Assembly: GCF_024700885.2 (NCBI RefSeq)
Contig: NZ_CP117016.1
Length of the DNA stretch: 64,000 nt
Origin: Escherichia coli
GTDB taxonomy: Bacteria; Pseudomonadota; Gammaproteobacteria; Enterobacterales; Enterobacteriaceae
Strand: one strand, 5' to 3'
Positions within the stretch are counted from its first letter, which is position 1; every line of letters starts with the position of its first letter. The position numbers were made by a program, and so were the translations under genes. The notes beneath the pieces were generated by a model that worked only from the letters and a program-made list of their open reading frames with translations, ran no database searches and had not been told where the DNA came from. Shown here one piece after another: positions 48,942 through 52,543 of this stretch.

Positions 48942-49604
48942 TTAAATCTCGTCAGGTGTACGCAGGTTGGTTACGGCAATGCGTTCACCGCGCTTGCGTT
49001 CGCGCTCTGATTGCATGTTGGCGCGATAAACGCCCTGATCGCCAACCACCCAGGAGAGCGGACGACGTTCTTTACCGATAGATTCCTGCAACAGCATCAG
49101 TGCCTGCATGTACGCTTCAGGACGCGGCGGGCAGCCCGGGATATACACATCAACCGGGATAAATTTATCGACGCCCTGCACAACGGAATAAATATCGTAC
49201 ATACCGCCGGAGTTGGCACAGGCCCCCATTGAGATAACCCATTTTGGTTCCAGCATCTGGTCATACAGACGCTGAATAACCGGTGCCATTTTGGTAAAGC
49301 AGGTTCCTGCAACGACCATCAGGTCAGCCTGACGCGGCGAAGCTCGCAATACTTCTGCGCCAAAACGCGCCACGTCATGCACCGCGGTAAACGAAGTCAC
49401 CATCTCAACGTAACAGCAGGAAAGACCGAAGTTATACGGCCAAATTGAGTTTTTACGACCCCAGTTAACCATGTCATTGAGCTTGCCCATAAACACGTTT
49501 TTGTTAACTTCTTGCTCCAGAGGGTCGGTTACGATCTCCTGCTTTTGCAGGGGGTAACGGTCGTTCTCACCGTTGGGATCTATGCGGGTGAGCGTATAAT
49601 CCAT
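48942..49604 (-). CDS. nuoB: NADH:quinone oxidoreductase subunit B (N2 cluster)
   Basis: 220 aa; CCxxE...GxCxxxGG...CP motifs. Confidence 0.96.
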
Positions 49605-49619
49605 CTTAATGCCTCGCGG

Positions 49620-50063
49620 TTAGCGTTGACGATTAGCGATACTGTTCGTTTCCGGGTTCATACGCTCGCGGCGTGAACGCGCGGGCGTCCAGTCCAGCGC
49701 GCCAATACGCACCAGATAAACCAGACCTGCCAGTAACACAAAAATAAAAATTGCAGCTTCCACAAAGCCTACCCAGCCGCTTTCGCGGATAGAGGTTGAC
49801 CATGCGAACAGATACAGCGCTTCAACGTCGAAGATAACGAAGAACATGGCCACCAGATAAAACTTGGCGGACAGGCGTAAGCGGGCGGAGCCGACCGAGT
49901 CGATACCGGATTCAAACGGCACGTTTTTCGACCTCGCGCGTGCGCGACCGCCTAAAAACCAACCGCCTACCAGCATCAGGCAACACAGGCCAATGGCAAC
50001 GATAAGAAAGATAGCGAATGCCCAGTGATGAGCGATGACTTCAGTGGATGTTGACATACTCAT
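49620..50063 (-). CDS. nuoA: NADH:quinone oxidoreductase subunit A
   Basis: 147 aa, 3 TM; first gene of the operon. Confidence 0.95.
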
Positions 50064-50609
50064 TGCTTACTCATCAAAAGTAGCGCCAGATTCACTGCTC
50101 TTCACGGCAGATGGACGCCACATCGATTCATGGGGAGGAATAAAAAAAACCTTACAATCACTGTAGAAATTCTTTTATACAGCTAATTGATGTGGTCTTT
50201 TACTCCTTTCTATAACCTTTTGTCAACTTTAACAAAAGTTTCTTCACATTAGTTTACATAATATCAACACCATTAGCATTTAATGCCCTTTCACCCCAGA
50301 TCCTTGACGACTCCAGGATAATTAGATGTTGTTGAATCGTGTCCGTTGTGAAGCAATGGAAAAAATACGGGTCTATTTTGACAGGAATTTGTGTCGATTC
50401 CTCCCCCCAAAAGAGAGTATTTTCTTGATCTGTGACACGCTTTTGTCATTCCATAACAAAAACGCAGCAACAAATTTACGTATTTTTTAACATCATTGTA
50501 GCAGGTGATTTTTTTCAGGCGATTATTTGTGCGTTCGGGACGTGAATCTCTGGTGATTGAAAAATGAACAGTTTTGTACGTTCTGCACGATACGAGGAAG
50601 GCTTTTTAC
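50064..50609 (-). promoter_or_regulatory. nuo operon promoter / long 5' leader region
   Basis: About 550 bp AT-rich non-coding DNA upstream of nuoA, downstream of the lrhA terminator; individual sites not mapped. Confidence 0.5.
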
Positions 50610-50657
50610 TAAAAAAAAGCCGCTGGGGTTTAAAACACCCCCAGCGGCTCGTTTTTA
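50610..50657. terminator. Bidirectional rho-independent terminator downstream of lrhA
   Basis: A8 - gccgctgggg-loop-ccccagcggc - GTTTTT, 35 nt from the lrhA stop. Confidence 0.8.
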
Positions 50658-50692
50658 CACTATTGTCTCAGAAATTATCTATGGTCCGTCGA

Positions 50693-51634
<942 letters not shown>

Positions 51635-52543
51635 TTATCACTTACTGGCGGCTCATACTGAGCTGGTTAATGCTGTGCACACACAAACAAGCAATTCCAT
51701 TTGTAATGTGCCTCCCTGGCAGTTTCATCCGGAACCCGGACGAAAGTAAAAATGCATATGAGTTGCACTAAAAAAGCGACTCACATTGTTCCGTTATAAT
51801 GCCTGAAGTAGATCACAGAATATATCTTCAGGAATCGCATATCTATTAAGTTACTCACTCTTTTGTATTTATGACATGCGCGTGTTTGTATAAATGTAAA
51901 TGTGAGTCCTTGTTCCACTCTCGTGCAGCATCGCTGGTCATACGCGAACACGTACAAACAGCAATGGTGAGGCGGCATCAAGAGCAGGGATCCGTCATTT
52001 ATGCGAGCATTTTACCCCAAAAACCTTTTATTTATAAGGGTCATTGCGAATTATCTGATGCAAAGTTATGTTATGTTAGGCAAAGTAATCTTCTATTATT
52101 AATAAGCACAACAAAACCTTTTTGAATATTAAATAATTAGCATCATCCTCATTCATTAATCCCGCTTAACAATAGTTTCACACCTTGCACCCATTACGAC
52201 ACCTCGGAAATCATCACGCTGTTAAACTCTCCGTAATGCGGAAATATCATCATCACGATTCATTAGTGAATTCTTAAACGAGGCATTTTCAAACAATTAT
52301 CTTACAGATAAAAAAACCACACTCACAATTAAGAATCAGAACAATTCACTACATAACATTAATTACTAAGCATATACACCTCATTATTTTGCCATTATTA
52401 AGTTATTAACAGCACAATCGAGTCTTCCCCTCTGGCAAAATCTTATTCTGCAGACCTTCAAAACGCCGTCCTGGGGGAGTACATTGTTCTAAGCTGACTT
52501 CCACGGCAGGGAGTGGCGATAACAGCAAAAAAGGTCAAGATTC

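Follow-up and report, generated by a model that had tools for sequence, protein, structure and literature searches.

The 629 bp that separate lrhA from nuoA in this Escherichia coli chromosome (positions 50064–50692 of the window, by which we mean the whole 64,000-nucleotide stretch of DNA analyzed) constitute an ordinary and already-known control region, except for one component: a conserved, uncharacterized RNA hairpin in the leader that precedes nuoA. Read in the direction of transcription, the spacer is very probably the known lrhA–nuoA control region, consisting of a terminator, regulatory DNA with its promoter, and a structured leader, all on the minus strand. The nuo genes specify respiratory complex I, and the DNA that controls them is a textbook example of a single promoter on which numerous global regulators act. 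Confirmation of this layout in itself adds nothing new: the terminator is ordinary, the sigma-70 promoter is already known to answer to multiple regulators, and the ribosome-binding site is a known RyhB target. What is useful is a precise map in which only 128 nt are leader, the finding that the spacer keeps a fixed length and a fixed arrangement of blocks across the Enterobacteriaceae, and the coincidence of a conserved, covarying leader hairpin with strong published RNA 3′ ends that the main text of the Term-seq study leaves undiscussed.

The gene identities follow from the open reading frame listing and the published K-12 RefSeq annotation. The lrhA coding sequence occupies 50693–51631 on the minus strand (312 aa) and ends in a TAA stop codon at 50693–50695, while nuoA occupies 49620–50063 on the same strand (147 aa) and is followed by nuoB and nuoC; the K-12 RefSeq annotation places no feature between lrhA and nuoA. 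This part of the window shares 99% identity and its gene order with E. coli K-12 MG1655, and an alignment over 681 bases contains nine substitutions and a 1-bp indel in an A-run, the K-12 spacer measuring 630 bp. The locus is that of the K-12 nuoA-N promoter region, with which it shares the transcription start context, the −35 box, the leader, and the flanking genes; that region was reportedly described by Bongaerts et al. in 1995 and Wackwitz et al. in 1999. Of 5,426 complete E. coli genomes, 5,423 carry the spacer, as a single chromosomal copy. A first-pass annotation of this DNA had named the two flanking genes, put the spacer at 630 bp, and described about 550 bp of AT-rich DNA before nuoA. 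The description holds: the 546 bp from 50064 to 50609 have a G+C content of 38.1%, as compared with 53% in nuoA, 50% in lrhA, and 52% in the window as a whole. For the comparisons described below, the lrhA locus was taken from 80 species of Enterobacteriaceae, and individual analyses cover 67–69 sequences or 73 species.

A conserved intrinsic terminator downstream of lrhA

The hairpin downstream of lrhA (50610–50657, minus strand) is a real intrinsic terminator, by both sequence and evolution, and lies at exactly the coordinates originally given for it. Its A-run (50656–50652) begins 36 nt past the lrhA TAA on the same strand, and is followed by an 11-bp stem with nine G-C pairs (50649–50639 with 50628–50618), which encloses a 10-nt loop (50638–50629), and by a U-run (50618–50611). 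The minus strand reads AAAAA-CG-AGCCGCUGGGG-(10-nt loop)-CCCCAGCGGCU-UUUUUUU; the tail comprises 8 U, and the 5–6 A of the A-run are able to pair with it. Folded in a 101-nt context, the minus strand reaches −34 kcal/mol (z = −4.7), and none of 200 shuffles was equally stable. A consensus terminator scanner did not call the lrhA hairpin because its loop limit is 8 nt, as against the 10 nt of the loop found here.

The comparative evidence is extensive. Among 68 distinct Enterobacteriaceae sequences, a hairpin with a T-run lies at the same distance past the lrhA stop codon in nearly every species; the stem sequence varies freely while its pairing is kept, with 83.7% of cells paired. Compensatory cells number 155, versus 54 ± 11 in shuffles, and the covariation score is 0.52 versus 0.26, a value reached by none of 500 shuffles; as a control, sliding the partner columns abolishes the signal. 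An unbiased helix scan of the whole alignment returns the terminator as its top match, including the pairs between A-run and U-run: the A-run is almost invariant across genera and co-varies with the U-run as an extension of the helix. A Rho-independent terminator placed 36 nt past the stop codon would end lrhA transcription.

The "primary" 3′ end associated with lrhA in K-12 maps to 2405672/3 (Supplementary file 1 of Adams et al., 2021; PMC7815308), 14 nt upstream of the hairpin and equivalent by alignment to 50662–50663 on the minus strand of the window. The curated Term-seq lists of that study, covering three conditions, place no 3′ end on the terminator U-tract (K-12 2405620–27), nor do they place a plus-strand 3′ end at the terminator (PMC7815308). 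The absence of ends on the U-tract is a weak negative, as a 3′ end buried in the A/U-extended helix may ligate poorly and so be undersampled. Even so, the first-pass statement that the hairpin isolates lrhA from the nuo operon stands as a prediction, with the efficiency of the terminator presumed: the listed ends in question lie at 50662/3 and at 50288, and none of those listed falls on the U-tract.

The hairpin had also been called bidirectional, and this description is apt only in part. Both strands do read as a hairpin with a U-run: the order is AAAAA-CG-stem...stem-UUUUUUUU, the plus-strand tail is CGUUUUU, and the plus strand folds to −29.6 kcal/mol (z = −5.3; again, none of 200 shuffles equally stable). 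In its G+C-rich stem, U tail, A-run, and conserved position after the stop codon, the element resembles canonical Rho-independent terminators with an A-tract, the so-called bidirectional form. Unlike these, however, it lies between co-directional rather than convergent genes, and its plus-strand T-run amounts only to CGTTTTT. Because lrhA and nuoA are both transcribed from the minus strand, "bidirectional" here describes shape only; there is no opposing gene for such a terminator to serve, the consensus scan found no promoter-like site on either strand, and the listed 3′ ends include none on the plus strand. An upstream A-tract also strengthens unidirectional terminators, as terminator design studies have found. 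An Rfam scan of 49500–52600 at E ≤ 1 produced a single match, to AaHKsRNA41 over the terminator; its 19.6 bits fall short of the gathering score of 97 (E = 0.17), and the match is taken as chance.

Promoter, transcription start and upstream DNA

The division of the remaining spacer follows from published transcription start mapping. In K-12, nuoA transcripts start 128 nt (4,218 reads) and 125 nt (1,744 reads) before the ATG (Kim et al., 2012; PMC3415461), and the upstream sequence that the same table gives for the nuoA start ends in ...TTGACAAAAGGTTATAGAAAGGAGTAAAAAACCACA. The major start, K-12 v3 coordinate 2405200, corresponds to 50191 in the window, and the minor start to 50188, both on the minus strand. 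The core sigma-70 promoter (50197–50226, minus strand) has a perfect −35 box, TTGACA (50226–50221), an 18-nt spacer, and the −10 hexamer TAAAAG (50202–50197), which ends 5 nt before the major start. In keeping with this assignment, a promoter described as TTGACA-18-TAAAAA was recovered for nuoA by SELEX with RpoD holoenzyme (Shimada et al., 2014; PMC3946193). Because the major start is at 50191, the leader is 128 nt long and the other 418 bp are promoter-upstream DNA. The first-pass annotation had proposed an extended promoter or leader and had named transcription start mapping as a check. An extended AT-rich control region is indeed present, but the published starts at 50191 and 50188 argue against a leader of about 550 nt.

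The promoter is strongly conserved apart from one position. In a footprint of 69 sequences, every base from 50258 to 50198 has a conservation of at least 0.9, the exception being 50197, the final base of the putative −10 hexamer, which is G in the window and A in K-12. The window's exact 60-mer around this base occurs in 4,253 of 5,423 E. coli genomes and is the commoner form; a K-12 60-mer offset by 7 nt has an exact match in 1,049, and the base is A in the other genera sampled. The hexamer TAAAAG matches the consensus at only four of six positions and lacks the final T. Because its last base is not T, the consensus promoter scan missed the nuo promoter; the scan called nothing in the region, its sole match lying inside nuoA.

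Our alignments show that the DNA upstream of the promoter is constrained in length and in blocks. The distance from the lrhA stop codon to the nuoA ATG is 619–634 bp in 65 of 73 species, and identity of the spacer to the window is only 55–71% outside Escherichia. Past the terminator lies a poorly conserved stretch of some 110 bp (50495–50609, minus strand), where conservation in the footprint of 69 sequences is mostly 0.1–0.4. The same footprint then resolves near-invariant blocks at 50493–50483, 50473–50463, 50450–50414, 50408–50397, 50387–50371, 50345–50326, and 50287–50270, followed by a continuous conserved block (50258–50180) that spans the core promoter. The far-upstream group (50371–50493, minus strand; −180 to −302 from the transcription start) contains GTTAAAAAA, TTGTTGCTG, ATGACAAAAGCGTGTCACAGATCAAGAAAATACTC, GGGGGGAGGAAT, and TTCCTGTCAAAATAGA, which are presumed to be binding sites for global regulators. 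Nearer the promoter are the block ACGGACACGATTCAACAAC (50326–50345, minus strand) and the block GGGCATTAAATGCTAATGG (50270–50288, minus strand), the latter including the palindrome GCATTAAATGC.

Bongaerts et al. in 1995 are said to have described control of nuo by ArcA and IHF, together with a C4-dicarboxylate effect further upstream. Other regulators are reported in the portions of the literature consulted: CpxR sites in the nuo promoter region that are bound directly (PMC8831704), control by NarL and FNR (PMC1805755), and multiple upstream Fis sites (PMC6497325; PMC3688515). Among the papers cited in PMC1805755, PMC6497325, and PMC3688515, ArcA and IHF control is reported as well. The site content had been described from the outset as not resolvable from sequence, and consensus scans for CpxR, NarL, IHF, FNR, CRP, Fis, ArcA, PdhR, and Fur bear this out, with just two matches in conserved DNA: a NarL heptamer at −13 and a CpxR-like box, GTAAACTAATGTGAA, centered at −59 (50243–50257, minus strand; one mismatch to GTAAA-N5-GTAAA; conservation 0.87). 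Both are leads only, including the reading of GTAAACTAATGTGAA as a CpxR site, and any pairing of individual proteins with individual blocks is conjectural.

When the whole alignment was searched without bias for stacked pairs that covary, no more than three helices emerged, namely the terminator of lrhA and two within the 128-nt leader, and none lay upstream of the start at 50191. Nor is there a conserved open reading frame in the spacer: frames of 37–60 codons are intact in only 1–3 of 69 sequences. Because it has no covarying helix and no conserved reading frame, and because its length and blocks are fixed, we infer that the upstream 418 bp acts as DNA, in the manner of a phased platform for proteins. 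These roughly 420 bp of AT-rich DNA would serve as a binding platform for ArcA, NarL, FNR, IHF, Fis, and CpxR, and these global regulators would adjust the output of a single strong sigma-70 promoter, from which the 14-gene nuo mRNA begins at 50191.

It is improbable, if still worth stating, that the nuo mRNA instead starts far upstream, at about 50326 or by read-through from lrhA, so that the conserved blocks act as RNA. The PBAD-nuoA fusion primer PBAD-nuoA-F begins at a "+1" at K-12 2405335 (Chareyre et al., 2019, Table S2). This position lies 263 nt ahead of the ATG and is equivalent to 50326, at the edge of the block ACGGACACGATTCAACAAC. In addition, the listed Term-seq data include a minus-strand 3′ end at K-12 2405297 in LB at OD 0.4 (Adams et al., 2021; PMC7815308), which corresponds to 50288, at the edge of the block GGGCATTAAATGCTAATGG and between the lrhA terminator and the nuo promoter. 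The use of a "+1" at 263 nt and the 3′ end at 50288 indicate that some transcription crosses the "upstream" DNA, and the lack of a listed 3′ end on the lrhA terminator U-tract is compatible with this. A perfect 10-nt complement, GGGGAGGAAT/ATTCCTCCCC, with arms 255 nt apart and both conserved, might further suggest a long-range RNA structure. However, the start mapping gives only 50191 and 50188 for nuoA, each with thousands of reads, and its table contains no start near 50326 (PMC3415461); the SELEX promoter and the perfect TTGACA box fit the start at 50191; no sigma-70-like hexamers are apparent by eye upstream of 50326; and no helix upstream of 50191 covaries. The complement (−215/+51) was rejected as an RNA helix, since about 20 sequences carry uncompensated changes in it, the upstream-arm changes from GGAGG to GATGA or GGAGGC never being compensated. 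The "+1" at 50326 probably follows an older primer-extension assignment; a minor second nuo start there, with a 263-nt leader, is possible. The start at 50191 is used in all that follows.

The nuoA leader and its terminator-like hairpin

The 128-nt leader defined by start mapping (50064–50191, minus strand) contains two structures that are conserved as RNA. The first, close to the mRNA 5′ end, is a stem-loop from +3 to +37 (50155–50189, minus strand), identified by folding and covariation, its outer stem being recovered by the unbiased scan. In this stem-loop, 77% of cells are paired and 7 of 11 pairs are changed on both sides, with stems such as CUGUA/UACAG, CUGUC/GACAG, CUGG/CCAG, and CUGCC/GGCAG; it would probably protect the mRNA end. 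Downstream of it, footprint and alignment mark a run of eight U (50149–50142) followed by a near-invariant AUUCCUCCCC (50141–50132), which together span +43 to +60 (50132–50149, minus strand).

The second structure is the terminator-like hairpin, which with its U-tract occupies 50073–50127 on the minus strand and is a real, selected RNA element. The hairpin proper, from +71 to +112, is branched and has the form GUGGCGUC...GGCGCUAC; UUUUGAU comes next, and after it GAGUAAGCAAUG, which contains the nuoA start. Its main stem (50121–50114 with 50087–50080) is accompanied by an inner CUGC/GCAG and an outer AUCGA/UUGAU pairing, and the short U-tract (50079–50076) follows, so that hairpin and tract end 10–14 nt before the nuoA AUG. 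The fold is −19.9 kcal/mol (z = −2.4). RNAalifold predicts the structure independently, and the unbiased scan recovers it. In 67 of 67 sequences the six core pairs are intact, with GC↔AU exchange in 14 and CG↔UA exchange in 13. The Rfam scan of 49500–52600 assigned the leader to no family at the gathering score.

The hairpin coincides with published 3′ ends. The Term-seq lists place one at +115 (50077; K-12 2405086) in LB at OD 0.4, with a score of 282,730, a Rho score of 0.82 ("No"), and an intrinsic-terminator score of 11.6 against a threshold of 3, and another at +119 (50073; K-12 2405082), with scores of 475,924 in LB at OD 2.0 and 124,622 in M63 (Adams et al., 2021; PMC7815308). The string "nuo" occurs nowhere in the main text of that study (PMC7815308). 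A hairpin with a U-run and Rho-independent 3′ ends in vivo is a hallmark of an attenuator, and the leader resembles the 5′-UTR premature-termination elements described from Term-seq, such as ispU/uppS (Adams et al., 2021), in precisely these features and in its high intrinsic-terminator score; it differs from them in that its U-tract is short and its hairpin is branched and long. The leader hairpin would most likely either stop some polymerases or block 3′ exonucleases, and either role would leave an abundant leader fragment of 115–119 nt.

The reading to which we give the most weight, at just under an even chance, is that this fragment is an intermediate of decay or processing, and that the hairpin acts in translation or mRNA stability rather than in termination; it could, for example, present the weak nuoA ribosome-binding site, position Hfq or RyhB, or block exonucleases. 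Most 3′ ends in 5′ UTRs have been ascribed to processing, and such ends adjoin sRNA pairing sites (Adams et al., 2021; PMC7815308), as do those in the nuo leader, which lie next to the segment that pairs with RyhB. The listed end also moves from +115 to +119 with growth condition, and nuoA.5UTR is target-like in RIL-seq data. This reading sits less easily with the high intrinsic-terminator score and Rho independence listed for the +115 end. It also has to accommodate the growth condition, since no induction of RyhB would be expected at OD 0.4 in LB, where iron is replete.

It is conceivable, though less likely, that the hairpin and U-tract (50127–50073) form a regulated transcription attenuator, at which a variable share of polymerases would stop 10–14 nt ahead of the nuoA AUG, setting complex I output and releasing a 115–119-nt RNA. 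Strong ends lie on or just past the U-tract in three growth conditions among the lists consulted and are Rho-independent, with a score well above threshold; by sequence reading, the +119 end lies 7 nt beyond the stem, which is the canonical distance; and compensatory changes preserve the hairpin, which a U-rich run always follows. Yet the U-tract (UUUUGAU) is short, the hairpin is long and has internal loops, and trimming by 3′ exonucleases back to a stable hairpin would be expected to leave the same ends. No covariation-supported anti-terminator structure was found, and the leader has neither a conserved leader peptide nor an Rfam family. One candidate anti-terminator, pairing of the mRNA 5′ end with AAUCGAUGUGG in the 5′ flank of the hairpin, was set aside: 78% of cells are paired, and covariation does not rise above shuffles. 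Further, read-through past the hairpin must dominate because the nuo operon is strongly expressed. If the hairpin does attenuate, it would represent an extra, unstudied control step for one of the cell's largest iron–sulfur enzymes, and would put a checkpoint at transcription elongation on top of a promoter that many global regulators already control. The stronger form of this idea, in which a regulated complex I attenuator also yields a leader RNA that functions in its own right and the U8-CCUCCCC tract is a possible sensor or protein site, is doubtful.

A peptide-coding role for the spacer is highly improbable. The candidates are a 9-codon upstream frame, MNRCGVHLP* (50102–50131, minus strand, read from 50131 to 50102), which overlaps the 5′ arm of the leader hairpin, and the frames of 37–60 codons mentioned above. 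In favor of the former, an ATG, GTG, or TTG is aligned at its start in most species, and in 31 of 67 sequences the frame is open for 23 codons and overlaps the nuoA start as ATGA. Against it, there is no Shine–Dalgarno sequence, CCUCCCC lying directly upstream; the start is lost in several species; the frame spans anything between 9 and 23 codons or is open-ended; the peptide differs between genera; and the E. coli form is intact in only 5 of 69 sequences. It is also absent from a published supplement of small open reading frames. With neither start, frame, length, nor ribosome-binding site conserved, we do not regard the frame as a conserved coding unit and reject it as a leader peptide.

The last segment of the leader is the best characterized. 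RyhB pairs with the nuoA ribosome-binding site and start codon, as established with compensatory mutants (Chareyre et al., 2019; PMC6497325), and the locus described here is that published case itself, with the same mode of pairing at the ribosome-binding site and start codon as in other RyhB-repressed mRNAs, such as sdhC. In the window, the ribosome-binding region with the ATG (50063–50061) lies at about 50055–50078 on the minus strand, the limits of the pairing site being estimated; it includes AAGCAAUG, which is near-invariant in 67 sequences. It is at this segment, downstream of the hairpin, that pairing of RyhB, an sRNA of iron starvation, has been demonstrated experimentally. A RIL-seq-derived table records 1,167 chimeras for nuoA.5UTR, with one partner and an sRNA probability of 0.005; on these figures, nuoA.5UTR looks like a target and not an sRNA. 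One discrepancy concerns the published mutants: the text of Chareyre et al. (2019) names "G86C/C87G", but the mutagenic primer replaces AGT with TCA at codon 2 of nuoA.

Spacer length and repeated elements upstream of nuoA

The distance from the lrhA stop codon to the nuoA ATG (window 50064-50692) is nearly constant across the Enterobacteriaceae compared: 65 of the 73 species, drawn from many genera, fall between 619 and 634 bp (the window together with lrhA loci L002-L081). Despite this fixed overall length, approximately 110 bp of the spacer varies freely in sequence. Near-constant length combined with so much variable sequence suggests selection on helical phasing or on spacing between the conserved far-upstream blocks and the nuo promoter. 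Longer spacers, resulting from insertions of 35-310 bp, occur in four species (loci L032, 664 bp; L038, 748 bp; L047, 937 bp; and L049, 747 bp).

The spacer also contains a perfect 10-nt inverted repeat, GGGGAGGAAT / ATTCCTCCCC, whose arms lie at window 50132-50141 and 50397-50406 with 255 nt between them. Both arms are near-invariant across genera, and no compensatory change between them was found across the genera compared. The repeat could represent one protein site present twice in opposite orientation, or else a coincidence.

Allelic variation in the proposed nuo -10 hexamer

The proposed -10 hexamer of the nuo promoter (50202-50197) reads TAAAAG in the window versus TAAAAA in E. coli K-12, the differing base being 50197 on the minus strand. 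A 60-mer spanning this position in its window form matches exactly in 4,253 of 5,423 E. coli genomes, while the K-12 form (queried with an offset of 7 nt) has exact matches in 1,049. The allele in K-12 may therefore be the rarer one within E. coli, and the position is one that normally counts for promoter function. Position 50197 is A in nearly all non-Escherichia genera sampled.

Transcript ends and the lrhA leader

Directly 5' of the A-run of the lrhA terminator, a 3'-UTR motif, GGTAACAAAATGTAAGTGT, is conserved in most genera other than Escherichia (loci L004-L081); the Escherichia 3' UTR (window 50657-50692) has diverged from it, reading GAGACAATAGTGT. The Term-seq 3' end of K-12 falls in this diverged stretch. 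Beyond the other end of the spacer, a minor 5' end (40 reads, assigned to nuoB) falls 18 nt inside the nuoA coding sequence, at window ~50045 (Kim et al. 2012, PMC3415461), and is probably a processing site.

The leader of lrhA is itself long. The lrhA-alaA spacer (window 51632-52543) spans 912 bp at 38.5% G+C, and an lrhA TSS has been reported 371 nt 5' of the ATG, with 11 reads (Kim et al. 2012, PMC3415461). Minus-strand 3' ends within this leader map to K-12 2406691, 50 nt 5' of the lrhA start codon, and to 2406927/2406933 (Adams et al. 2021, PMC7815308). In a RIL-seq-derived table, alaA.lrhA.IGR appears with 449 chimeras and four partners. RNA-level regulation looks richer in the lrhA-alaA spacer than in the lrhA-nuoA spacer.
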